A stretch of 13,374 nt of DNA from a virus, in IMG/VR virus record IMGVR_UViG_3300045988_050262; one strand, 5' to 3'. Below are positions 1 through 13,374 of the stretch, one piece after another. The notes beneath the pieces were generated by a model. That model was not told the DNA's origin and searched no databases. It was given only the letters and a program-made list of their open reading frames with translations. Positions within the stretch are counted from its first letter, which is position 1, and the number at the start of each line of letters is the position of its first letter. The translations under genes and the position numbers were made by a program.

Positions 1-79
1 TCCCCAATTGACGATAAACCGTTCATAGCACTTTAACACAGTAAAGCGTTACTGTACTACACTTTGTTAAATTATTCAC
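1..79. repeat. Left inverted terminal repeat (55 bp perfect, imperfect to ~79)
   Basis: nt 1-55 (tccccaattgacgataaaccgttcatagcactttaacacagtaaagcgttactgt) equal the reverse complement of 13320-13374. Homology continues to ~79 with one mismatch (pos 56) and a 2-nt indel. It contains a 7-bp hairpin, acagtaa-agcg-ttactgt, at 38-55. Confidence 0.95.
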
Positions 80-172: not shown

Positions 173-201
173 AGTATACCATAACCGGGTGGTGATGTCA
201 A
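173..201 (-). promoter_or_regulatory. Consensus sigma-70/sigma-A type promoter on the minus strand, firing toward the left terminus
   Basis: The minus strand reads TTGACA (201->196), a 17-nt spacer, then TGgTATACT (extended -10; hexamer 178->173). The hexamers and spacing are the same as the promoters at 5388 and 13238. A 7-bp inverted repeat (154-160 / 188-194) brackets the -10. Confidence 0.65.
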
Positions 202-1305: not shown

Positions 1306-3309
1306 ATGAAATACTACACTACGGCGGATTTTCCGCTATTCGCAATTAAAAACTGTGATATCGAGCGCCGTAGTGTAGGCAATCAGGGCACCACCGTTCG
1401 GCGCGTATACAAGCAGATGTTGACTGGCTTTGACATTGAAACGACCCGTATCCCCGCCGAAGATCAATCCTTTATGTACGTTTGGCAATGGTATTTCGAG
1501 GGCGTGGGCGTTGTCATCGGTCACACCTGGCGCGAACTTCGTCTATTCATAATGCAGATCGAAGCCGTACTTGACAATGCCATGCTGGTGGTGCTGGTCC
1601 ATAATCTTTCATACGAATTTCAGTTTCTGCGCGCGGTTCACGAATGGAAAACCGATGAAGTATTTGCCGTCAAGTCCCGGCGCGTGCTTAAAGCTACTAT
1701 GAACGGTAAACTTGAGTTTCGTTGTACCATGCTCCACTCTAATATGTCTCTTGCTACCTGGACGGCCAAAATGGGCGTGGAGCACGGCAAGCTTTCCGGC
1801 GACGATTTCAATTACAATATTATGCGCTACCCAGACACACCGCTGTCCGAAACTGAGCTTGCGTATATCACCAATGACGTGGTGGGCATGGTCGAAGCTT
1901 ATCGCGCCGAAATGGAGCGAGACAGTGATAACCTCTATAAAATCCCGCTCACGTCCACCGGTTACGTTCGGGCCGACAGTAAGCGCGCCATGCGCAACAG
2001 CGGTAAGGTGGTTAAGAACATATTGCCGGACTATGATATTTACAAGATACTCCGCAAGGCGTTCCGTGGCGGCAATACCCACGCCAACAGATATTATTCC
2101 GGGATGATACTTGAAAATGTGAAGTCCGCCGATCGTTCCAGTAGTTACCCGGATGTTATCTGCAATTGTAAATTTCCCATGACCAAATTCCGGGAAATCA
2201 TTAATCCTGATATATGGAAAGTCGAAAAGATGATGAAAGACCGCCGTGCGCTGGTATTCACTATCCTGCTCCACGACGTGGAGCTTTCCGACCCATACAA
2301 CGGTTTCCCCTATATCAGCGTTGCAAAGTGCGCGGCCTGTGTTCGTTCTGGTAATGATAACGGTCGAGTGTTGAATGCTGACTTTATAGAAATGACAGTG
2401 ACCGATATTGACTGGCGGATTATCAAAAAGCAGTATGAATTTTCTGACGTGCAGGTGACGAAAGCTTATTGGAGCCATTACGGCTATTTACCTCGCGCTC
2501 TGATCGTGAACACAATAGACTACTACACCAAGAAAACCAACCTTAAAGGTGTGGACGGCCAACAACTACTCTATGACAAGTCCAAAAACCTATTGAATGG
2601 TATTTACGGCATGATGGCGCAAGATCCGGTGAAGCAGGATATTATTTACCATGAAGGCACTGGCGAATTCACCGAGGATGACGCGCCGCCTGAAAGTCTG
2701 CTTGCGGAGTTCTCCAAACACGCATTTCTTGCCTATCAGTGGGGCGTATGGATAACAGCATGGGCGCGTCTTCGTTTACAAGAGGGCATAGACCTATGCG
2801 GGCATAATTGTGTGTATGTGGACACTGACAGTTGTAAATATCTGGGTGTGGTGGACTGGACGGCTTATAACCGCAAGCGCGTCCGTGCCAGCGCTCAGAG
2901 CGGCGCATACGCCACAGACCCACACGGAAAGCGCCACTATATGGGCGTATTCGAGGACGAGGAGCCATACACCAAGTTCAAGACGCTGGGCGCAAAGAAG
3001 TATGTCTTTGAACACGCGGACGGCAAGCTCCAAGTTACCATTGCGGGCGTCAACAAAAAGAAAGGTGGTGCGGAGTTATCTCGCCGCGGCGGCATTGAAG
3101 CATTCCGCGAGGGTTTTACATTCATAGACGCAGGAGGTACCGAGAGTGTCTACAATGACTCTACGCCATACGCAGAACGTATGTTGAACGGTCATAAAAT
3201 CGAAATGTCCCCTAATATCTGCATTCGGCCTAGCACGTATACTATTTCTTTGACGGATGAATATAGAAATTTGTTAGAAACTTGCAAAATTTCTGTTGAC
3301 AATTTGTAG
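1306..3309 (+). CDS. Protein-primed family-B DNA polymerase (phi29 gp2-like), 667 aa
   Basis: Motifs, each paired with its phi29 counterpart: ExoI GFDIETT. ExoII HNLSYEFQF (phi29 HNLKFDGAF). ExoIII AYITNDV (YIKNDI). AFRGGNT (AYRGGFT). Motif A DRSSSYP (DVNSLYP). Motif B KNLLNGIYGMM (KLMLNSLYGKF). Motif C YVDTDS (YCDTDS). KxY GAKKYVF. Confidence 0.96.
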   Translation: MKYYTTADFPLFAIKNCDIERRSVGNQGTTVRRVYKQMLTGFDIETTRIPAEDQSFMYVWQWYFEGVGVVIGHTWRELRLFIMQIEAVLDNAMLVVLVHNLSYEFQFLRAVHEWKTDEVFAVKSRRVLKATMNGKLEFRCTMLHSNMSLATWTAKMGVEHGKLSGDDFNYNIMRYPDTPLSETELAYITNDVVGMVEAYRAEMERDSDNLYKIPLTSTGYVRADSKRAMRNSGKVVKNILPDYDIYKILRKAFRGGNTHANRYYSGMILENVKSADRSSSYPDVICNCKFPMTKFREIINPDIWKVEKMMKDRRALVFTILLHDVELSDPYNGFPYISVAKCAACVRSGNDNGRVLNADFIEMTVTDIDWRIIKKQYEFSDVQVTKAYWSHYGYLPRALIVNTIDYYTKKTNLKGVDGQQLLYDKSKNLLNGIYGMMAQDPVKQDIIYHEGTGEFTEDDAPPESLLAEFSKHAFLAYQWGVWITAWARLRLQEGIDLCGHNCVYVDTDSCKYLGVVDWTAYNRKRVRASAQSGAYATDPHGKRHYMGVFEDEEPYTKFKTLGAKKYVFEHADGKLQVTIAGVNKKKGGAELSRRGGIEAFREGFTFIDAGGTESVYNDSTPYAERMLNGHKIEMSPNICIRPSTYTISLTDEYRNLLETCKISVDNL

Positions 3310-3324
3310 CAGATATGTTACTAT
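3296..3324 (+). promoter_or_regulatory. Internal promoter overlapping the polymerase stop codon
   Basis: TTGACA (3296-3301), a 17-nt spacer, then TGtTACTAT (extended -10; hexamer 3319-3324). It is followed by GATGGGC (3334-3340) and the AGGAGG of the next ORF. Confidence 0.6.
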
Positions 3325-3353: not shown

Positions 3354-3482
3354 ATGTACGATAAAGAAATAAAGTATTATAACGTAAAGGTTAGCTATGT
3401 TTCCGCGGGCGGGAAGTATAGACGCTTCAAAACAATTAGAGGTTACTCAGAGGAAGACGCGGTTAAGACGGCAAGGGATTAG
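3354..3482 (+). CDS. Hypothetical small protein (42 aa to TAG 3480-3482; 65 codons to TAA 3549-3551 if the TAG is read through)
   Basis: AGGAGG (3341-3346) lies 7 nt before ATG 3354. The frame reads MYDKEIKYYNVKVSYVSAGGKYRRFKTIRGYSEEDAVKTARD-TAG-IRNETVKYKVQIEQVSNVIGWL-TAA. It resembles the 311 ORF (YYxV...GxYR...S-x-EDA-x3-AR). Confidence 0.6.
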   Translation: MYDKEIKYYNVKVSYVSAGGKYRRFKTIRGYSEEDAVKTARD

Positions 3483-3608
3483 ATTAGAAACGAAACCGTT
3501 AAATATAAAGTGCAGATTGAGCAAGTTTCTAATGTTATTGGTTGGCTGTAAGACTATGTTTAAATTGTCTGCCCTAACGGACTTATACGGGGAGAAAGTG
3601 AGAATACT

Positions 3609-3968
3609 ATGAGCAAGACGTTGACCCTGACCATTTTCGCAAAGACTCGCAAGACCAAGGACGGACGTAAGTTCAATACCTTTGTCACCACTCTGCCTGA
3701 TGGGGAGAAAGTGGCAGTCAAGTTTCAGAACGCCTGCGGCGAGCCGAAGTGCTGCCCCTGCAATATCGATCTTACGCGGGGCGGTTGTAATCTGTCCACT
3801 GAAATCCGTACCCGTAACGTTGTGAACAACAAGGTTGACCCCGCCACTGGTGAGGTGGTCGGCACAGAGACCGTGCAGGAGAAAGCCGATGTAAAGGTGC
3901 TGTGGATTTCTGCATGGGCTTACTCCGCCGAGGAATACCGCGACAGCTCCATGGACGAATTCTTTTAA
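3609..3968 (+). CDS. Hypothetical protein (119 aa), possible ssDNA-binding protein
   Basis: Clean ORF with a weak SD. The C-terminus is an acidic-aromatic tail (EEYRDSSMDEFF), as in bacterial SSB and T7 gp2.5 tails. The N-terminus is basic and beta-rich. It contains a Cys cluster, CGEPKCCPC...GGC. The size is similar to phi29 p5. The functional call is weak. Confidence 0.7.
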   Translation: MSKTLTLTIFAKTRKTKDGRKFNTFVTTLPDGEKVAVKFQNACGEPKCCPCNIDLTRGGCNLSTEIRTRNVVNNKVDPATGEVVGTETVQEKADVKVLWISAWAYSAEEYRDSSMDEFF

Positions 3969-3980
3969 GGAGGTAACATT

Positions 3981-4214
3981 ATGACGGTCACTTTTTTAAC
4001 TGATAACATTAAGATGGGCCGCACGGGTATTGCTTACCCGTTTGTGTTGGAAGTTCCTGAGTTCGGCCAGATTGCCGGGAGAGTGACCGAGACGCGGAGG
4101 GGAGCCACGCAGGTGGCTTTCCCCTCTGGTGTCAAAGCGGCCAGCGCAACGGCGGGGTTTATTCTCTATGAGTTTCAGAAGCAGGTGATAGTGAGTGAAA
4201 ATATTTGCACCTAA
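3981..4214 (+). CDS. Hypothetical protein (77 aa)
   Basis: AAGGAGGT lies 7 nt before ATG 3981. It overlaps the ATPase start by 20 nt. No motif recognised. Confidence 0.7.
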   Translation: MTVTFLTDNIKMGRTGIAYPFVLEVPEFGQIAGRVTETRRGATQVAFPSGVKAASATAGFILYEFQKQVIVSENICT

Positions 4215-5214
4215 CGGCTATTTGGATATGGAAAAAATCATTTCCAGCCCGTACTATTTCATTATGGTGCTGACAGGTCGCGGCACCGGTAAGACGTTCG
4301 GTGCTCTGGATTATCTCCGTAAACGCGCTACCAAGGGCGACCGGTTCATGTATTTTCGCCGCCTACAAACACAGATTGACATTGTGGCAAAGCCGGAGTT
4401 CTCCCCATTCAAAAAGCTGGACGCGGTACGCCACACTGTCACAGACGTAAAAAGCCTATCGAAGCAGACCGCCGGTTTCTATGATGATAGCACCGGCGAT
4501 CTGTTAGGCTATGCGGCGGCGGTTTCCACGTTCGCCAATTTGCGTGGTTTTGACGGTTCCGATATAGGCACTATCTTATTTGAGGAATGTATCCCGAAGC
4601 TCTACGAGTCAAAAATTCGCGACGAGGGCGCGGCTCTGATGGACGCTTACGAGACGATCAACCGCAACCGCGAGTTGGAGGGTGACGAGCCGGTGAAGCT
4701 GGTTTGCATTGGAAACAGTAACAACTCTGGCGCAGATCTTTTGTGCTATCTCAATCTTGTTTCCCGCGTAGAGAAAATGAAAAAGAACGGTACAATGGTC
4801 TACACGGACCCCGCGAGGTCCCTACTTCTAATCGTCCTGAAAGACTCCCCTATGGGCGAAAAGAAAGCAGATACAGCCCTTTACCGATTTTTGGGCCGCG
4901 AGAGCGACTATGCAAAGGCGGCACTTGACAACGAGCCGCCGGAGGAATGGGGCGAGTTCACCGGCAAGCTCCCATTAAAAGAGCTATCCCCGGTTGTGTC
5001 CGTAGGCGAGATTACAGTCTATCGGCATAAATCCCGCCACACGCTCTACGTGTCTACGCACAAGCAGGGAAGCCCGCCCACCTACGGCACCGGTCAAAAT
5101 GACATGAAGCGTGTCAAGACTCTCTATCGTTGGATATGGCAGGCGTATATAACCCAGCAAGTCATTTTCGAGGAAACGGTCTGTGAAATTCTATTCACTA
5201 AGTATTTTAGTTAG
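4195..5214 (+). CDS. DNA encapsidation (packaging) ATPase, phi29 gp16-like, 339 aa
   Basis: AGGTGA lies 6 nt before GTG 4195. Matches to phi29: Walker A LTGRGTGKTF (GARGIGKSY). RFMYFRRL (QFIYVRRY). Walker B ILFEECI (IVFDEFI). NRNRE...LVCIGNSN (NRERVRCICLSNA). Confidence 0.9.
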   Translation: MKIFAPNGYLDMEKIISSPYYFIMVLTGRGTGKTFGALDYLRKRATKGDRFMYFRRLQTQIDIVAKPEFSPFKKLDAVRHTVTDVKSLSKQTAGFYDDSTGDLLGYAAAVSTFANLRGFDGSDIGTILFEECIPKLYESKIRDEGAALMDAYETINRNRELEGDEPVKLVCIGNSNNSGADLLCYLNLVSRVEKMKKNGTMVYTDPARSLLLIVLKDSPMGEKKADTALYRFLGRESDYAKAALDNEPPEEWGEFTGKLPLKELSPVVSVGEITVYRHKSRHTLYVSTHKQGSPPTYGTGQNDMKRVKTLYRWIWQAYITQQVIFEETVCEILFTKYFS

Positions 5215-5224
5215 GAGGTTGACA

Positions 5225-5401
5225 ATGGCAAAGAGTGATAAATGGGAACGTTTGAAAGAGGAAATGAACCGTTTGGCAGATGAATTCGATACACTTCCAA
5301 ATCCCACCGCGGAGCAGTGCGGAATGTGTCAGGCATACAATTATGTTTATGTGCGGATGCGCGCACTTGAGTTATCTGAAAAAAAGCTTGACAAAGCCTA
5401 A
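5225..5401 (+). CDS. Hypothetical protein (58 aa)
   Basis: AGGAGG (5211-5216) precedes ATG 5225 (MAKSDKWERLKEEMNRLADEF...), ending in TAA 5399-5401. The upstream start at 5183 in the ORF track has no SD and overlaps the ATPase. Confidence 0.65.
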   Translation: MAKSDKWERLKEEMNRLADEFDTLPNPTAEQCGMCQAYNYVYVRMRALELSEKKLDKA

Positions 5402-5416
5402 ACCATGCGCTATACT
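5388..5416 (+). promoter_or_regulatory. Consensus promoter for the lysis and structural (late) operon
   Basis: TTGACA (5388-5393), a 17-nt spacer, TATACT (5411-5416), with an A7 run just upstream. Predicted start is ~5423. Confidence 0.7.
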
Positions 5417-5424
5417 TATCGTAA

Positions 5425-5504
5425 GATGGGCGGTGGGTGTCCATATGCAATCGCCGGAAGCGAGGACGCGCACCGGGCACGGTGCATGAGCCCACCGCCC
5501 TATC
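5425..5504 (+). promoter_or_regulatory. Structured RNA element (three-way junction) at the 5' end of the late transcript
   Basis: P1: 5425-5437 pairs with 5491-5504 (13 bp including 10 contiguous GC-rich bp, one bulged T). P2: 5439-5442/5464-5467 plus 5451-5454/5460-5463. P3: gcaccg-ggca-cggtgc (5470-5485). The element starts ~2 nt after the predicted start and ends 11 nt before the holin SD. Confidence 0.5.
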
Positions 5505-5529
5505 ATATTATCATCGGAGGGTTCGCACC

Positions 5530-5856
5530 ATGAAAGTATACTTGATTTGTGTTTTGGCCTGTATTCTGGCCGATATCCTGACCGGGTTGGTCAAATCCCT
5601 TTATGAAAAAGATTTCCAGTCTTCTGTCATGCGACAGGGCCTTTTCCACAAGGCGGGCGAATTGATGGTGCTGGGTCTGTTGTACGGCGTGGAATATGCG
5701 GCTCCTATGCTGGGTATCACGTTCGAGTTGCCCACGTTCCGCGCCGGAGCCTGCTATTGTATTTTGATGGAAGTGGGGAGTATCATTGAGAATATTAAGC
5801 CGTTCACCCCCGCCATTTCCTCTATCTTGAGAAAGGATGAAGACAATGCCGATTGA
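5530..5856 (+). CDS. Holin (phage_holin_4 / toxin-secretion-holin type), 108 aa
   Basis: GGAGGG (5516-5521) lies 8 nt before ATG 5530. Product MKVYLICVLACILADILTGLVKSLYEK...GELMVLGLLYGVEY...CYCILMEVGSIIENI has three hydrophobic segments typical of this holin family. It sits directly upstream of the endolysin. Confidence 0.85.
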   Translation: MKVYLICVLACILADILTGLVKSLYEKDFQSSVMRQGLFHKAGELMVLGLLYGVEYAAPMLGITFELPTFRAGACYCILMEVGSIIENIKPFTPAISSILRKDEDNAD

Positions 5857-6574
5857 TGTTTATTTGTCCCCGGCATATCACCGGCAGAATAACTGCTGTT
5901 ATCACCGGCCAGACGGGCAGCCCTGCTATGAGACGTTGCATAACAACGAATATCTGGACGTGCTGGAAAAGTTCCTGACGGCCAACGCGATCACCTATGC
6001 GCGCGGCCCGCGCCGTGTCCCTATGTCCAATGAGGACGGCACGGCGCTGATGAACAAGGCTATTGCCGAAAGTAATAAGCTGAAAGCGCGGGTGCATTTC
6101 GTAAGCCACACCAACGCAAGCGCCAACGGCACCGCAAGCGGATACCACCCCATGTATTACGCATACAGCGCGAGCGGGAAATTGCTGTGCGAGCTGTTTG
6201 CTAAGTATCGTCGAGACATTTACCCCGGCGCGGTGAAGTGCGTACCCCGCCCCAGCGGCTATGGCGGCAATCTGGCGGAGCTACGAAACACCACCGGCGT
6301 ATGTATCTATCAGGAGCATATATTCCACGACAACGCGCAGGATGCGGCGTGGTTCCATACGCACATGGAGGATATTGCACGGGCCGATACAAAGGCGCTG
6401 TGCAAGTGGTTCGGGAAAACCTACGTGGAGCCCGACCGCGCCGAACAGGAAACCGGCGCGCCGCGCTTTGGTCTTGACTATTCCAAATCCGATGGCTTTA
6501 GCTGGTACGTGGACGGCGTTGAGACTACACCGCGCGGCTTTATGGACGCACTGACAAGTTTAATGGAGGACTGA
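5837..6574 (+). CDS. Endolysin: N-acetylmuramoyl-L-alanine amidase (Amidase_3-like)
   Basis: Zn-amidase pattern: SPAYH...E...VSHTNA...LAELRNT...IYQEHIFHDN. It overlaps the holin stop. The SD (AAAGGA 5832-5837) fits the second ATG at 5846 better than 5837. Confidence 0.88.
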   Translation: MKTMPIDVYLSPAYHRQNNCCYHRPDGQPCYETLHNNEYLDVLEKFLTANAITYARGPRRVPMSNEDGTALMNKAIAESNKLKARVHFVSHTNASANGTASGYHPMYYAYSASGKLLCELFAKYRRDIYPGAVKCVPRPSGYGGNLAELRNTTGVCIYQEHIFHDNAQDAAWFHTHMEDIARADTKALCKWFGKTYVEPDRAEQETGAPRFGLDYSKSDGFSWYVDGVETTPRGFMDALTSLMED

Positions 6575-6887: not shown

Positions 6888-8105
6888 ATGAATAGCATGA
6901 CCTTTTCCCAGGCGGCAACCGTTCTGACCGATATCGTCAAGCAGGCGACCGGCCAGGAAGCGATCACCGCGATCACCACGCCGCAGGATTTTGTAGCGGT
7001 AGCGCAGACTGCGTTGAAAACGGGCTATGACCCCGTTATCAACGCAATTTCACAGATTTGGAGCCGCACGATCTTTTCCGTGCGCGACTACCGGACGCCC
7101 ATGGACTCCCTTATGATGGATATGCCCCGCTACGGTAACGCCCTGCGGAAGCTGTCCCCCGTCAGTGGTGAGATGGTGGACGATGATCGTTATAAGTACC
7201 CCGTGGCCTATGACGCCACCAAGACCGGAAACCCTCTGGGCAACGGCGAGAGCGTAGACATGTATGCCATTAAGAAGCAGGAGACCCTGCAAACCAATTT
7301 CTATGGCACCGCTGTCTATGAGCAGCATTACACCATGTTCCGCGATCAGTTTGACGCCGCCTTTGAAAGCGCGGACGAGTTCAGCCGTTACAATGCTATG
7401 TGCATGACGGAGCGTATGAACGACCGCGAGAGCTACAAGGAAAGTATCGGACGCGGCATTCAGGCCAACTTCATTGGCGGCCTGCTGTCCGAGGGTAACG
7501 CGAGTCGAGTTATCCACCTGCTGACCGACTACAACGCCGCCACCGGCCTGTCCCTGACTGCGCAGAGTGTGTACCAGCCCGCCAATTTTGCGCCCTTTAT
7601 GCGCTGGGTGTACGCGCGTATCAAGACGATCTCCCGGATGTTCGCAGAGCGTTCCCAGATGTTCCAGACCGTTATCAATACCAAGCCGGTCTTGCGGCAC
7701 ACCAACCCGGAAAATCTGCGTATCGCGCTCTATGCGCCCGCTATGGACCAGATGAACGCCATGGTGCTGTCCGACACCTATAACGACAACTATCTCCAGT
7801 ACGCGACCTATGACGCGGTTAATTTCTGGCAGAATATCGAGACGCCTGACACCATCGAAATCGCCCCCGTGTATACCGACACCACCGGTGCGCTGAAGCA
7901 GGTGGAAGCGGCGAAGCCGGTGGAGAAAGCGGGTATTTTCGGCGTCATCCATGATCGTGACGCTCTGGGTTATGCCATCGTCAACGACTGGGCGCAGCCC
8001 ACTCCGTTCAACGCCCGCGGCGGCTATTGGAATGAGTTTTATCATTCCACGTTCAAGACCATTTCCGACAATACCGAGAAAGCCTGTGTCCTGTTGCTGG
8101 ACTAA
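6888..8105 (+). CDS. Major capsid protein, phi29 gp8-like (HK97 fold), 405 aa
   Basis: The C-terminal segment HDRDALGYAIVNDWAQPTPFNARGGYWNEFYHSTFKTISDNTEKACVLLL parallels phi29 gp8 [47 protein letters not shown]. Strong SD, and a terminator downstream. Confidence 0.9.
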   Translation: MNSMTFSQAATVLTDIVKQATGQEAITAITTPQDFVAVAQTALKTGYDPVINAISQIWSRTIFSVRDYRTPMDSLMMDMPRYGNALRKLSPVSGEMVDDDRYKYPVAYDATKTGNPLGNGESVDMYAIKKQETLQTNFYGTAVYEQHYTMFRDQFDAAFESADEFSRYNAMCMTERMNDRESYKESIGRGIQANFIGGLLSEGNASRVIHLLTDYNAATGLSLTAQSVYQPANFAPFMRWVYARIKTISRMFAERSQMFQTVINTKPVLRHTNPENLRIALYAPAMDQMNAMVLSDTYNDNYLQYATYDAVNFWQNIETPDTIEIAPVYTDTTGALKQVEAAKPVEKAGIFGVIHDRDALGYAIVNDWAQPTPFNARGGYWNEFYHSTFKTISDNTEKACVLLLD

Positions 8106-8114
8106 TGGCATTGA

Positions 8115-8141
8115 GGGAGACCGGGCAACCGGTCTCCCTTT
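8115..8141 (+). terminator. Intrinsic terminator or attenuator after the capsid gene
   Basis: gggagaccgg-gcaa-ccggtctccc forms a 10-bp GC-rich stem with a tetraloop, followed by TTT. It lies between the capsid stop (8105) and the next SD (8142). Confidence 0.6.
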
Positions 8142-8153
8142 GGAGGAAAGTAT

Positions 8154-9542
8154 ATGAGCTTTAAAGTCAGACTCTATACAATCGAAAAATATGACCGGAG
8201 CACGAAACAGCCAACGGGGGCGGGGAAAGAGTATGAATGCCTGGCTAACACTCCGTTCTCCGTCCTCTCTCCCACACTGCGGCTGGCTACCGGGGACGCG
8301 GTGAGCGTATATAATTATGTATATGTGCCCTCCGTGGACCGGTTTTATTTCGTCAATGAGTGGACCTATTCCCGCGGCTTGTGGGAGGCGGAATGCGCTG
8401 TTGATGTGCTGGCCAGTTGGAAAAGCTATATCGGGGACAGTACGCTGTACGTGTTGCGCTCTGCGGCACAGTCGGACGGCTCTGTTATCGATATGGCATA
8501 CCCCACCACGGCGAAATTGGACGTGGTGCAGAAAGCGTTTACGCTGGCGGGGAGTGATCAGGAGTCGTGGAATTATGACGGTGTTAAAGGCACTTATGTT
8601 GTCGGTATCGCGGGCCGAACGGGCGGAGCCGTTACATACTGGGCCATGAACACAGCTATGTGGGCGAATTTCACAAATGAAATTTTTGGCACCGGCGAAT
8701 ACGCGGGCATAGTGGACGAAGCCGAAAAGCGGAATTTTAACCCGTTGCAGTATTTTGTATCCGCTAAATGGTTCCCGTTCGATATTCAGACCGCGGGAGG
8801 TACAGCCCCCATCACATTGGGCTGGTGGACGATGAGCAGTAAAGCGTTTCAGTTTGAAGCGTCCAGCTCCAAACCTATGTTTTCCGGCACGATCACTATT
8901 CCGAAACACCCGCAGGCCGCGGCACGCGGAAAGTACATGAATTCTGGCGCGTTTTCCGCCTACGCGCTCAAGCTTCCCTGTTTCGGACTGGTGCAGATAC
9001 CGCCCGCCCTGATTATAGACACTACAAGTCTGGAAGTAGAGATTTGGACGAATATCGCCGACGGGACTGGAATGCTGAAAGTAACGGCGAATAATCGCGC
9101 CGAGCCTATTATTTTCTTGGAAGCGCCTGTGGGGTGCCCCGTACAGCTTTCTCAGGTGTCAGCAGGTTTGTTGTCCTCTATCGCTAATCGCGCGCAAGCG
9201 GGCGGCGGTTTGTGGGGGGCGGTCGTCCAAGCGGCACGTTCCGCCATTACGGAAATTGGTGAGGTGGTCGGCCTGCCTGTAGAAAATTCTACGGCAGTAG
9301 CGACCAACGGCACCAACGCAAGCCGCGCTATGACGAAAATCACGCCCGCATTGCTGGCGACATTTACCTATGCCACTGACGAGGACGTACAGCACCGGGG
9401 CAGGCCGCTGTGTAAGCTGGTAAAGGTCTCCACGTTGTCCGGTTACATTCAGGCGGCGGATGGTGACATTCTGGCTCCCGCTACGGAGAGCGAGTTACGG
9501 AGCATTAAAGCGTATTTGGAGGGAGGTTTTTTCTATGAGTAG
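8154..9542 (+). CDS. Tail knob / tail tube protein, phi29 gp9-like, 462 aa
   Basis: DRFYFVNEWTYSRGLWEAECAVDVLASW parallels phi29 gp9 [31 protein letters not shown]. The C-terminal ...VSTLSGYIQAADGDI...ELRSIKAYLEGGFFYE parallels ...YVQTKDCFISGDI...LQEIRTIFDNGITLW. Confidence 0.8.
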   Translation: MSFKVRLYTIEKYDRSTKQPTGAGKEYECLANTPFSVLSPTLRLATGDAVSVYNYVYVPSVDRFYFVNEWTYSRGLWEAECAVDVLASWKSYIGDSTLYVLRSAAQSDGSVIDMAYPTTAKLDVVQKAFTLAGSDQESWNYDGVKGTYVVGIAGRTGGAVTYWAMNTAMWANFTNEIFGTGEYAGIVDEAEKRNFNPLQYFVSAKWFPFDIQTAGGTAPITLGWWTMSSKAFQFEASSSKPMFSGTITIPKHPQAAARGKYMNSGAFSAYALKLPCFGLVQIPPALIIDTTSLEVEIWTNIADGTGMLKVTANNRAEPIIFLEAPVGCPVQLSQVSAGLLSSIANRAQAGGGLWGAVVQAARSAITEIGEVVGLPVENSTAVATNGTNASRAMTKITPALLATFTYATDEDVQHRGRPLCKLVKVSTLSGYIQAADGDILAPATESELRSIKAYLEGGFFYE

Positions 9543-10476
9543 TTACGGCGGCGCGCCGGTATTCTACGATCACCAGAACGTCGCACTAACGGAGGTCTCC
9601 CCCTCTACGGTCCATAGCCAGAACACCAAGCTTGTGCGCTACTACAAGCGCTATCTGCTACAGAAAGCCATGTCGGTGTTTAAGTGGAAGCTTCCGGAAC
9701 ATTGGAACAGGGACTATCTGTTGTATTCCCTGTACTGCTGGGGCGTGGTGGCCGTGTTTAATACAGATCGTTTCGGCGTCATTCCGCAGATGTGCGGACT
9801 GGCCGGTTATGGCGTATTCTATCAGCCCACGCGGGCGATCATTGCAAATTCGCTTATCAATCGAAGCATTGAGGCGAGAATTGGCGAGACGTGCGAATTG
9901 CTCAAGCTCCAGTCGGATTTCGGCGGCATTATGGATATGGTGGCACAGTATGCGGAGCTGATGGCACTCACGTCTGAAATGGTATCCATGAATGTGGTCA
10001 ACTCAAAGCTGTCCTATGTGTTCACGTCCGGGAATAAGGCGGCGGCGGAAAGCTTCAAGAAGCTGTACGACAAGATCACCAGCGGCGAGCCCGCTGTTGT
10101 GGTTGATAAGGCGCTTATGCTCCCGGATGGCTCCAAGGCGTGGGAAGCGTTTGAACAGAATTTGCGGCAGAATTTCATAGCCGGAGACGGCCTGTCACTT
10201 CTGCGGCAGATCGAAAACCAGTTTGCCACGGATATCGGTATCCCGAACGCCAACACCGAGAAGCGCGAAAGGGCTGTCGTGGACGAGATCAACGCGAATA
10301 ACGTTGAGACCTATTCAAAATGTGCGCTGTGGTTGGAGTCCTTGCAGGACGGCTGTGAGCGCGTGAAGCGGATGTTTGGCGAGTCGCTGGGCGGCGAGCT
10401 GTCCGTTGACTGGCGTTTCCAGCCAGTGGTTGAGAAGCCGGAGAACGGCGGGGAGGTAGACGAAGATGAAAAGTAG
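9535..10476 (+). CDS. Portal / upper collar connector, phi29 gp10-like, 313 aa
   Basis: GGAGGT lies 7 nt before ATG 9535, overlapping the upstream stop (ATGAGTAG). GIPNANTEKRERAVVDEINANNVETYSK parallels phi29 gp10 [28 protein letters not shown]. The C-terminal tail is acidic. The ORF-track start at 9460 lies inside the tail knob gene. Confidence 0.9.
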   Translation: MSSYGGAPVFYDHQNVALTEVSPSTVHSQNTKLVRYYKRYLLQKAMSVFKWKLPEHWNRDYLLYSLYCWGVVAVFNTDRFGVIPQMCGLAGYGVFYQPTRAIIANSLINRSIEARIGETCELLKLQSDFGGIMDMVAQYAELMALTSEMVSMNVVNSKLSYVFTSGNKAAAESFKKLYDKITSGEPAVVVDKALMLPDGSKAWEAFEQNLRQNFIAGDGLSLLRQIENQFATDIGIPNANTEKRERAVVDEINANNVETYSKCALWLESLQDGCERVKRMFGESLGGELSVDWRFQPVVEKPENGGEVDEDEK

Positions 10477-12337: not shown

Positions 12338-13234
12338 ATGGCAATTGTAAATACTCATTATGGGTTCTGTGCCAAGGGTGGCGTAGCGGACAAGTTCACG
12401 TATACTGGCGAGTATAATATCCGGGCCGATGGCGTGGTGGAACTGCTGACGAGTGGAACCATTGTGTTCCTCGAGCCGATAGTCATTGACGTGTTTTGCG
12501 TCGGCGGTGGTGGACATGGTGGAGAGGTACGTGTCAGCACTACAATGACACCGGGAAGCGGGGAAGGCTATGGCGCTGGCGGCGGCGGATTGACCAGCAC
12601 CGCAAAAAATGTAAATGTCCAAGGAAGCATAGACGTAACCATTGGTGCTGGTTCTCAGGAGGTTTCCAGTTTCACGAAGGAAGTTCGCGGAGAAACAACG
12701 TCATTTGGCAATATTCTAAGCGCATTAGGGGGGCTATCCGGGTATGTAAATCGTGAAGCAACGGAAGGAGTAACCACTAAACGGAGCACAGAAGGCCGCG
12801 CTGGCGGAAGTGGCGGCGGTGGTGGCGTTACAAATAATTCCGATTGGGGGGCCGGTGGAAGTAACGGCAGCAATGGCGAAAATGGATACTATGGTAGCTA
12901 CACACCCACAGGTGGAGCAGGACAAGGAACTACAACGCGAGAATTTGGAGAAGCCGGTGGCAAACTGTACGGCGGCGGCGGCGGCGCAGGGCGATATCTT
13001 TATGGAACCACACCGGTAGTTAGTAGCGGCGGTAGCGGTGGTGGCGGTTCTGGAGCATGGAGTAGTAGGAGATACGATCCTTACCAAGCGGCGGCTGATG
13101 GCGGTGCAAATACCGGTGGTGGCGGTGGCGGTGGTGTTTACTATGCAAAAACTTCAACCGAAACTGTGCCATTTAGTTGGTTAGCAGGGGGGTCTGGAGG
13201 TTCCGGTATCTGCTGTTTCCGCATGGCAAAATAA
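12338..13234 (+). CDS. Glycine-rich-domain protein (298 aa), probable distal fibre or spike
   Basis: AGGAGG lies 6 nt before ATG 12338. It has about 9 G-rich blocks (VGGGGHGG, GAGGGG, GGSGGGGG, GGGGGAG, GGSGGGGSG, TGGGGGGG, GGSGGSG) separated by short beta-like spacers. It is the last gene of the structural module. Confidence 0.6.
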   Translation: MAIVNTHYGFCAKGGVADKFTYTGEYNIRADGVVELLTSGTIVFLEPIVIDVFCVGGGGHGGEVRVSTTMTPGSGEGYGAGGGGLTSTAKNVNVQGSIDVTIGAGSQEVSSFTKEVRGETTSFGNILSALGGLSGYVNREATEGVTTKRSTEGRAGGSGGGGGVTNNSDWGAGGSNGSNGENGYYGSYTPTGGAGQGTTTREFGEAGGKLYGGGGGAGRYLYGTTPVVSSGGSGGGGSGAWSSRRYDPYQAAADGGANTGGGGGGGVYYAKTSTETVPFSWLAGGSGGSGICCFRMAK

Positions 13235-13237
13235 GAG

Positions 13238-13266
13238 TTGACAAACGCGATCAGGTGTGCTATACT
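13238..13266 (+). promoter_or_regulatory. Consensus promoter firing outward toward the right terminus
   Basis: TTGACA (13238-13243), a 17-nt spacer, TATACT (13261-13266), beginning 4 nt after the last stop codon. No gene lies downstream, only ~102 nt of ITR-containing sequence. Confidence 0.65.
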
Positions 13267-13294
13267 ATCCATGCTGGGTGGCGTAGCACACCTG
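13252..13294. repeat. 11-bp inverted repeat bracketing the -10 and start of the right terminal promoter (operator, or terminator for the last gene)
   Basis: caggtgtgcta (13252-13262) and tagcacacctg (13284-13294), separated by a 21-nt loop that contains most of the -10 (TATACT 13261-13266) and the predicted start. Confidence 0.55.
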
Positions 13295-13374
13295 TGAATA
13301 ATTTAACAATGAGTGTAGCACAGTAACGCTTTACTGTGTTAAAGTGCTATGAACGGTTTATCGTCAATTGGGGA
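13271..13374 (+). ncRNA. Candidate ~100-nt terminal run-off transcript through the right ITR
   Basis: Predicted start is 13271-13273. It contains the ITR hairpin (reverse complement of 38-55) and no credible ORF or terminator. Confidence 0.25.
13294..13374. repeat. Right inverted terminal repeat
   Basis: Reverse complement of nt 1-79. The last 55 nt (13320-13374) are a perfect match. The right copy carries 2 extra nt (tg, 13310-13311). Confidence 0.95.

Follow-up and report, generated by a model that had tools for sequence, protein, structure and literature searches.

The 128-nt gap that precedes the holin gene of this genome raises the question of whether it encodes a functional RNA and, if so, whether this RNA acts on the late mRNA that carries it or as a stand-alone molecule resembling the prohead RNA (pRNA) of phage phi29. 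The window, i.e., the whole stretch of 13,374 bp analyzed here, is a complete linear genome of a phi29-like phage, as indicated by its gene content and its terminal inverted repeats (the first 63 bases recur inverted at the other end and are 98% complementary). Nearly all genes are located on the plus strand. They include a gp16-type DNA packaging ATPase, a phi29-type major capsid protein and a gp10-type head-tail connector (Table 1), the latter probably with its true start at M26, near position 9535. An AF2 model of the ATPase (pLDDT 89.9) matches both phi29 gp16 (7JQQ) and asccphi28 gp11 over the full length, and also the isolated C-terminal domain of gp16 (6V1W). Whole-genome megablast against GenBank phages gave no close match at the DNA level. 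Judged by the ATPase (30% identity), the nearest relatives in culture are AD70P2 and AD70P3, two Amedibacillus phages (Guelinviridae). A tRNA/tmRNA scan of the window returned no hits.

Table 1. Genes, promoter and RNA elements of the window. RNA elements were delineated with RNAfold.
Feature	Position	Strand	Description
Type-B DNA polymerase	1306-3309		Protein-primed
DNA packaging ATPase	4195-5214	+	gp16-type; Pfam PF05894
58-aa ORF	5225-5401		Directly 5' of the 128-nt gap
Small ORF (42-44 aa)	5372-5506	-	Overlaps the RNA region
Sigma-70-type promoter	5388-5416	+	-35 TTGACA 5388-5393, 17-nt spacer, -10 TATACT 5411-5416
Small ORF (42-44 aa)	5405-5533	+	Overlaps the RNA region
Three-way junction	5425-5504	+	P1, P2 and P3
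P1, 5' strand	5425-5437	+	GAUGGGCGGUGGG; counterpart of the pRNA A helix
P2a, 5' strand	5439-5442	+	GUCC, pairs with 5464-5467; counterpart of the pRNA C helix
5' bulge	5443-5450	+	AUAUGCAA, 8 nt; counterpart of the pRNA CE ('right-hand') loop
P2b hairpin	5451-5463	+	UCGC-CGGAA-GCGA; 5451-5454 with 5460-5463, loop 5455-5459; counterpart of the pRNA E hairpin
P2a, 3' strand	5464-5467	+	GGAC
P3 hairpin	5470-5485	+	GCACCG-GGCA-CGGUGC; 5470-5475 with 5480-5485, loop GGCA 5476-5479; counterpart of the pRNA D hairpin
Junction strand J3/1	5486-5490	+	AUGAG
P1, 3' strand	5491-5504	+	CCCACCGCCCUAUC; 13 bp in P1, U5501 bulged out
Linker	5505-5529	+	A/U-rich, G-poor, then holin SD GGAGGG 5516-5521
Holin	5530-5856		ATG at 5530
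Amidase	5837-6574
Major capsid protein	6888-8105	+	phi29-type; Pfam PF25622
Head-tail connector (portal)	9460-10476	+	gp10-type; Pfam PF05352 at 3e-20; phrog_2038
Glycine-rich tail protein	12338-13234

An initial annotation, made from the sequence alone, had described the gap, a promoter and a three-way junction behind it. The 128-nt length of the gap is correct, while the ORF on its upstream side encodes 58 aa instead of the reported 59 aa. The promoter was found as described; it scores 11/12 and represents the best match on the plus strand of the window. Transcription is predicted to start near A5423, and the three-way junction begins about 2 nt later. The predicted promoter is strong and of sigma-70 type, so the 5' end of the RNA is taken to coincide with the transcript start, which leaves no room for a longer P1 in the window. 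RNAfold returned exactly the proposed layout of P1, P2 and P3. The fold energy of the 84-nt core (5423-5506) is -45.3 kcal/mol with a z-score of -4.64, and no shuffled sequence out of 200 folds as well. The proposal that P1 sequesters an SD-like run found no support; the SD of the holin gene lies 12 nt 3' of P1. A search with Rfam 15 of the whole window, the region alone and 11 relatives gave no family match.

An alignment of 35 relatives of the ATPase led to 80 IMG/VR loci, in addition to nine further loci. The ATPases of these loci are 32-99% identical to that of the window. By eye, the same three-way junction could be recognized behind a consensus-like promoter just after the ATPase gene, with an unrelated primary sequence. 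A covariance model built from 10 diverse copies (R1) gave one match per locus in 83 of 88 sources, and a second model built from the R1 matches (R2) added seven more. Together, both models find exactly one copy of the RNA per genome in 90 of 93 related sources. The remaining three (AD70P2 and loci L008 and L009; L numbers designate the related loci) carry divergent copies that are recognizable by eye, two of them scoring weakly when filters are switched off. In addition, a 28-nt pattern derived from one sub-clade has 45 matches among 2.9 million IMG/VR contigs, every one on a contig of at most 14.2 kb. Eleven of these belong to the ATPase-derived set, and all 34 loci outside that set encode the ATPase on the same strand as the RNA. 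The element is a conserved, single-copy structured RNA that is specific to small phi29-like phages.

The initial annotation had suggested looking for covariation across homologous intergenic regions, and P1-P3 are indeed kept with compensatory changes in about 90 related genomes, for which reason the structure lies far beyond chance. Among 63 distinct sequences, 94.7% of the alignment cells are paired versus 57.3% in shuffles, with none of 500 shuffles reaching the observed value. Double-sided changes occur in 27 of the 28 modeled pairs, and the covariation score is 0.954, compared to 0.206 for shuffled alignments and at most 0.15 when partners are slid. A structure-blind MAFFT alignment agrees with the covariance model (88.9% paired versus 64.7%). 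All helices contribute: P1 is 97% paired with double changes at 10 of 10 modeled pairs, P2a (helix 2) and the P2b stem (helix 4) are both 100% paired with four out of four pairs covarying, and P3 (helix 5) is 96% paired with five out of five pairs covarying. In relatives nearly identical to the window, one G-C pair of P1 is replaced by A-U (L006 and L007) and one A-U pair of P3 by G-U. The family core measures about 71-80 nt and holds about 10 conserved unpaired nucleotides. The CGGAA loop of P2b is nearly invariant (conservation of 0.87-1.0 per position), and J3/1 follows the consensus N-N-G-A-N, in which the G and the A are conserved at 0.84 and 0.95, respectively.

A further feature, absent from the initial annotation, is that the 5' bulge of P2 (7-8 nt) is complementary to the loop of P3 and that both covary. 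These pairs had been left out of the covariance model. In three of the five bulge/loop columns, three or four types of pair occur at similar frequency; the counts for pair 29-75 are GC 18, AU 17, CG 16 and UA 5. The longest Watson-Crick run of a bulge with its own loop has a mean of 4.57, versus 2.42 for mismatched partners, over 41 distinct combinations. The almost identical RNAs of L024 and L025 have exchanged GACC/GGUC for GGUC/GACC. Other bulge/loop combinations are UGUCA/UGACA (L013), UGCAC/GUGCA (L018), GUCCA/UGGAC (L020), GACCA/UGGUC (L022), GGAGAAA/UUUCUCC (L009) and AAAAGGAA/UUCCUUUU (L092). The complementarity in the window is the weakest of the family, with 3 bp (UGC/GCA; U5446-G5447-C5448 with G5477-C5478-A5479) and a 4-nt loop, compared to 5 bp in most relatives. 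Its close relative L006 has two Watson-Crick pairs plus one G-U pair, and P3 itself is reduced to 2-3 bp in distant clades. Diversifying selection on the kissing sequences was considered and rejected: across 36 close pairs, the 10 kissing columns account for only 11 of the 140 differences, i.e., there is no enrichment.

The family extends beyond metagenomes into cultured phages, specifically Amedibacillus phage AD70P2 and the phiCPV4 group of Clostridium perfringens phages. In phiCPV4, the spacer that precedes gp22 and the major head gene contains a promoter and, behind it, an RNA of about 108 nt. This RNA has an A helix of 14+7 bp with an internal loop, a C helix of 7 bp, an E hairpin (GGG-GUGGAA-CCC) and a 5' bulge (CGCCA) that is matched by the loop of the D hairpin (UGGC). 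The RNA region is 93-100% identical among the 17 C. perfringens phage records found, two of which are those of phiCPV4 itself, and is mostly unannotated. The differences within the group include three compensatory pairs, located in the A and C helices. Annotated coding sequences overlap the homologous region in two cases (CPS2_5 and one in phage cpx). The longer form of the phiCPV4 group narrows the size gap to the classical pRNA of 117-120 nt.

The position of the RNA within the transcription unit is equally constant. It forms the first ~80 nt of the predicted late (lysis and head) transcript, with P1 closing the molecule. In 89 of 90 related loci, the RNA model starts 1-9 nt downstream of the end of a promoter scoring 9/12 or better. 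At the other side, 16-58 nt separate the RNA from the start codon of the first late gene, without exception among the 79 distinct loci. The intervening linker is unstructured and variable in length, with a G content of 3-14% over its first 11 positions (79 distinct loci). No terminator follows the RNA in the window, where P1 is followed by CUAUCAUAUUAUC and the combination of a GC stem and a U-tract is missing. Across the family, the first 10 nt after P1 contain 3.9 U on average; U-tracts directly after P1 occur in few lineages, and a clear canonical terminator 3' of the RNA is found only in L046-L051. P1 itself was ruled out as a terminator, as the U-tract is not consistent across loci.

The first late gene differs between clades. 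It encodes a holin_4_1 protein in the clade of the window and a BhlA-like small membrane protein (holin), followed by an M15 peptidase, in most other clades, while a gene for a scaffold-like protein comes directly after the RNA in L020, L039, L091, AD70P2 and phiCPV4. In L087, L089 and phiCPV4 the late module is inverted, and the RNA has moved with it, far from the ATPase gene. In 29 of the 79 loci, a CCGG box ((A/U)UCCGG) that is complementary to the invariant loop precedes the SD. A conserved pairing of this box with the loop, either in cis or in trans, was rejected: the box is missing from the clade of the window and from 50 of the 79 loci, yet the loop stays invariant.

We lean, with some reserve, toward the interpretation that the RNA is a miniature pRNA, produced as the leader of the late mRNA, in phi29-like phages of 12-15 kb (Guelinviridae and their uncultivated gut relatives). 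We favor it because the topology of pRNA is matched point by point and all three partner proteins of pRNA are present, and also because gp16-type ATPases are expected to be unable to bind the connector by themselves (PMC11476376). The RNA would be freed by cleavage in the A/U-rich linker after P1, which is a candidate processing site, or alternatively by partial termination in those lineages that have a terminator or U-tract. Copies would then join head-to-tail in the manner of phi29, each pairing its P2 5' bulge with the P3 loop of its neighbor, and the prohead would carry the resulting ring at its connector vertex. The invariant CGGAA loop might touch a conserved surface of the capsid or the connector, and P1 would dock the gp16-type ATPase, with the product of the ATPase gene of the window as its presumed partner. 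As a side effect, the stem at the 5' end would shield the late mRNA from 5'-exonucleases; such a stabilizing effect is likely under any interpretation. Prohead binding, the ring, the intermolecular nature of the pairing and the role in packaging are what we infer from this comparative evidence. According to our own estimate, one RNA per late transcript would roughly fit a ratio of ~5 RNAs to ~200 capsid proteins per particle.

Several observations point in the direction of a pRNA. A single copy in 90 of 93 related sources resembles the distribution expected of an essential component, and in phiCPV4, AD70P2, L020, L039 and L091 the genes for scaffold and capsid come immediately after the RNA. 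The stand-alone RNA resembling pRNA, which was one of three options put forward in the initial annotation, is the best fit among these, and the likeness has become more complete: the full topology, the covarying bulge/loop complementarity and the homologues of gp16, gp10 and the capsid protein are all shared. Other observations argue against it. The constant leader position in the late operon, kept upon inversion of the module, is the pattern of a cis-element. The window has no terminator and only one clade (L046-L051) has a clear one. There is no sequence or model similarity to the pRNA family RF00044, even below threshold, and P1 comprises only 10-13 bp, without the long, bulged A helix on which gp16 function depends in phi29. 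The pairing in the clade of the window is short (3 bp, and 2 bp in L006), with the partner in a 4-nt loop, and with a P3 of 2-3 bp in distant clades the pairing could be an intramolecular H-type pseudoknot. The junction strands of 1, 2 and 5 nt also differ from the 1, 3 and 0 nt of phi29. Because the pairing in the window is the weakest of the family and the window lacks a terminator, the case for pRNA rests largely on the family.

The most serious competitor, which we nevertheless consider rather unlikely, is a cis-acting leader of the late operon that stays on the mRNA, with the bulge and P3 loop forming an intramolecular pseudoknot that locks a compact fold. Such a leader might stabilize the 8-kb late mRNA or, as a binding site for RNA polymerase or for a protein of the phage or the host, determine the timing, antitermination or translation of the late genes. 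The invariable location, from the transcript 5' end to 16-58 nt before the first late gene, is what one would expect of it, as is the finding that the RNA tracks the late operon and not the ATPase gene in rearranged genomes. Additional control is also plausible given the constitutive-looking consensus promoter before the late genes, and the CCGG box, where present, complements the invariant loop. Structurally, the bulge, on top of P2a (4 bp), and the loop, on top of P3 (5 bp), are about equally distant from the junction. The pairing of L008, L009 and L092 (5-8 bp) is laid out like an H-type pseudoknot, and a pseudoknot is sterically reasonable in the distant clades with a very short P3. The lengths of J1/2 (1 nt), J2/3 (2 nt) and J3/1 (5 nt) may argue against a contact within one molecule: under the three-way-junction rules reported by Lescoute and Westhof (2006), strands of such lengths would place P1 and P2 in one coaxial stack, and P3 would run back alongside P1 and point away from the bulge. 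A conserved terminator, anti-terminator or SD-sequestering alternative is not found in the unstructured and variable linker, the gene that would be controlled depends on the clade (two types of holin or a scaffold), and in one clade a strong terminator separates the RNA from that gene. The first option of the initial annotation, a 5' stabilizer, holds insofar as the window has a stable stem within ~5 nt of the transcript 5' end and P1 begins a few nt from the predicted start in 89 of 90 loci, so that it is a probable side effect, but a stabilizer requires just a hairpin and leaves the CGGAA loop and the covarying tertiary helix unexplained. A cis-acting leader would also not account for the match with pRNA topology in a phage that has the protein partners of pRNA.

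A small RNA that acts in trans outside packaging, such as a decoy or inhibitor of host defense or nucleases, a regulator binding RNA polymerase or an antisense RNA pairing its CGGAA loop with CCGG on the late mRNA, appears improbable. The conservation and compactness of the RNA, its seeming abundance and its strong promoter would suit this role, just as the terminator 3' of the RNA in L046-L051 and the complementarity of the loop to the recurrent (A/U)UCCGG box would. However, the loop is invariant also where the box is missing, no link between the RNA and defense genes was seen, and the bulge/loop design and the restriction to phages with gp16 and gp10 would remain unexplained. We regard a riboswitch, i.e., a metabolite aptamer controlling the holin and lysin genes, as highly improbable. 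It would be a three-way junction in a 5' UTR with a possible loop-loop contact and about 10 conserved unpaired nucleotides, as seen here, but there is no match to any Rfam family or aptamer, the G+C-rich P1 of 10-13 bp is very stable, and the linker, unstructured, variable and devoid of a conserved terminator, offers no expression platform. Moreover, the RNA occurs in only one phage group and never near cellular genes in what was searched, and the downstream gene is not constant. The holin timer or riboswitch of the initial annotation therefore finds little to recommend it, given the varying first gene, the missing platform and terminator, and a P1 that is too stable. Finally, the sequence could hold no functional RNA at all but chance hairpins in a G+C-rich spacer or a small protein-coding ORF. 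Small ORFs indeed overlap the region on both strands of the window, as do the coding sequences annotated in CPS2 and cpx. This reading is effectively refuted by the covariation, the MAFFT result, the shuffles and the indel pattern: substitutions keep base pairs instead of codons and indels are not multiples of three. From the covariation in both the model and the MAFFT alignment it therefore follows that the RNA is real and that the overlapping small ORFs are not the selected feature.

For nearly 40 years pRNA has been regarded as a curiosity of phi29 and Bacillus phages, and RNA nanotechnology leans heavily on the three-way junction and kissing loops of phi29. A 2024 review limits pRNA to phi29 and its Bacillus relatives (PMC11476376), a 2025 search for new pRNAs yielded Bacillus phages only (PMC12670572), and RF00044 is known from Bacillus phages of the Salasmaviridae. 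In the 2012 paper on phiCPV4, pRNA was named only as the presumed partner of the ATPase. The literature covered, which includes few subscription journals, so that an earlier report is possible, mentions no pRNA or similar RNA for Guelinviridae, C. perfringens podophages or gut phi29-like phages. We consider the chances evenly balanced that the RNA is a true minimal prohead RNA and that RNA-dependent packaging motors are consequently shared by Guelinviridae-type phages instead of being a Bacillus oddity. If so, motors with an RNA would occur in phages of C. perfringens and in thousands of phages from gut and rumen, and perhaps in all phi29-like phages, and the docking of the ATPase in phi29-like phages in which no pRNA had previously been found would be explained. 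The RNA would represent a new production route, in which the 5' end of the late mRNA is cut off to yield about one pRNA per late transcript, and with ~14 bp per subunit between the kissing sites the ring geometry or copy number may differ from that of phi29. A second RNA family of pRNA architecture without sequence relationship would show whether the RNA ring is ancestral to gp16/gp10 motors. It would also supply a natural minimal pRNA (~75 nt) to structural biology, single-molecule studies and RNA nanotechnology, and annotations would be corrected, given that some records place a protein over the RNA. Even if cis-acting, the RNA constitutes a new, well-supported structured RNA family that is not in Rfam.

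The RNA shares features with several known systems. Like the purine riboswitch aptamer and the hammerhead, it carries two arms on a closing helix and, like them, may make an arm-to-loop contact, which is intramolecular in those RNAs; the candidate RNA is also located in a 5' UTR. It differs from them in having no hammerhead core (CUGANGA/GAAA), no Rfam match and no expression platform, and in that its contact is a 5-bp Watson-Crick helix of free sequence, J2/3 is 2 nt long and P1 is very stable. Stabilizer stem-loops at the 5' end of Gram-positive mRNAs, such as those of the ermC and aprE leaders, consist of simple hairpins. The RNA resembles these in placing a stable stem a few nt from the 5' end of a long mRNA, but adds a conserved loop and a covarying tertiary pairing. 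The put element of phage HK022 is made up of two stem-loops in tandem and lacks both a closing helix and kissing complementarity. As in put and other processive-antitermination leaders, a structured RNA of ~70 nt directly follows a phage promoter in cis to a long operon; unlike in the HK022 setting, no terminators to override were identified in the late operon of the window.

In the comparison with phi29 pRNA, no similarity is detectable at the level of sequence or covariance models: RF00044 finds phi29 pRNA at 145 bits, which served as positive control, but gave no match at E-values up to 10 in the window, phiCPV4 and 11 relatives, and nothing reached the gathering threshold. The location differs as well, since the family forms the 5' leader of the late operon, usually without a terminator of its own, whereas phi29 pRNA is a separate unit at the genome end. 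A genome-end RNA as in phi29 was considered for the window, which has outward consensus promoters at both termini and a left run-off transcript that folds well. It was ruled out as the conserved RNA: in 24 relatives with complete ITRs these promoters are mostly missing (a few weaker ones score 10-11/12), and there is no model match at these ends. The family core (~71-80 nt) is shorter than phi29 pRNA (117-120 nt, from a primary transcript of 174 nt), which has a long, bulged A helix, whereas P1 has 10-13 bp without a CCA bulge (~21 bp in the phiCPV4 group); at 13 bp, P1 of the window is well short of an A helix of ~25 bp with bulges. The C helix has 9 bp (5+4) in phi29 and 4 bp in the family, the 5'-strand bulge 9 versus 7-8 nt, and the D hairpin 5-6 bp versus 5 bp with a 7-8-nt loop. 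The E hairpin has 4 bp in both, with a loop of 6 nt in phi29 and the invariant 5-nt CGGAA in the family. J(A/C) is 1 nt in both, J(C/D) 3 versus 2 nt and J(D/A) 0 versus 5 nt (N-N-G-A-N). The span per subunit, composed of 9 bp (C), 5-6 bp (D) and 4 bp (kiss) in phi29, amounts to 4+5+5 bp in the family and is about 20% shorter.

Despite these differences in size, the elements follow each other in the same order in both RNAs, i.e., A helix, C helix, 5' bulge, E hairpin and D hairpin. In both, the bulge lies on the 5' strand, with its paired nucleotides adjoining the E hairpin, and the closing helix begins at about +2/+3 of the (predicted) transcript from a strong promoter. The gp16 ATPase, the gp10 connector and the phi29-type capsid protein are likewise encoded by the same phage. 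In phi29, the bulge of one molecule pairs with the D loop of another, which assembles the ring on the prohead (PMC5066667), and loop covariation between closely related pRNAs is considered a hallmark of bona fide pRNAs by Guo and colleagues (PMC12670572). The family shares with phi29 pRNA this covarying complementarity of the bulge and the D loop, which comprises 3-5 bp and covaries even between near-identical RNAs.

The stretch between the conserved three-way-junction RNA and the first late gene was compared among the related phage loci (L numbers). An (A/U)UCCGG(C/G) box recurs in 29 of the 79 distinct loci, 8-12 nt upstream of the first late gene's SD. This box and the invariant loop CCGGAA at the apex of hairpin P2b of the RNA are complementary, and the box is retained even where an inserted terminator separates it from the RNA. 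It is absent from the clade of the window. Perfect palindromes (two copies of GTTTCACGTGAAAC, or TGTATAC-N3-GTATACA) are also found in the stretch that follows the RNA, ahead of the next gene, and these may represent operator sites or additional hairpins.

Upstream, the RNA is separated from the packaging ATPase gene by a hypervariable 58-aa ORF, with an identity of only 45-74% across L001-L007 versus 98-99.7% for the ATPases of the same loci. More distant clades lack this ORF, and the RNA promoter there adjoins the ATPase stop codon. A fourth strong promoter, immediately downstream of the polymerase gene, stands in front of the small ORFs at 3397-4214 and the ATPase gene, and is not followed by a structured RNA. 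In some genomes, including that of phage phiCPV4 (L094), the entire late module has the orientation opposite to that of the replication and ATPase module, and the RNA then heads the late operon close to the right genome end.

Small CDSs annotated as ‘hypothetical protein’ lie over the conserved RNA in the GenBank records of phages CPS2 (L095) and cpx, which is probably a mis-annotation. A 619-aa ORF on the strand opposite the capsid gene is probably a compositional artefact.

Coordinates of the RNA-associated, coding and terminal features
Feature	Location	Strand	Remarks
Promoter after polymerase gene	window 3296-3324	+	TTGACA-17-TACTAT, TG extension
58-aa ORF	window 5225-5401		
(A/U)UCCGG(C/G) box	L021, L023-L025, L029, L033-L038, L041, L046-L051, L058, L061-L067, L071-L076, L081		within 10-25 nt after the RNA
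Palindromes	L008 5056-5126; L009 5166-5206		after the RNA
Palindromes	L030, L043, L049, L075		directly 3' of the RNA
RNA in inverted modules	L087 13189-13269; L089 12893-12973; L094 16184-16291	-	
CDS across the RNA	CPS2 131-253; cpx (MW679027) 1807-1937		
619-aa ORF	window 7050-8909	-	antisense to capsid gene and next gene
Inverted terminal repeats	window 1-79 and 13294-13374		63 nt, loosely 79 nt
Left outward promoter	window 201..173	-	TTGACA-17-TATACT, TG-extended consensus
Right outward promoter	window 13238..13266	+	TTGACA-17-TATACT, TG-extended consensus

The window comprises an entire linear genome bounded by inverted terminal repeats, and a 25-nt part of the repeat is duplicated at the left end, 94 nt further inward (28-52, 122-146). 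Two promoters are directed outward across these repeats, with predicted run-off RNAs of ~165 nt (left; folding z = -3.6) and ~105 nt (right). Weaker outward matches (10-11/12) occur in only a few of the 24 other ITR-complete relatives, and the covariance model of the RNA gave no match there. Origin activation is one possible role for the end promoters. In the window, these promoters take the place that the pRNA has in phi29.
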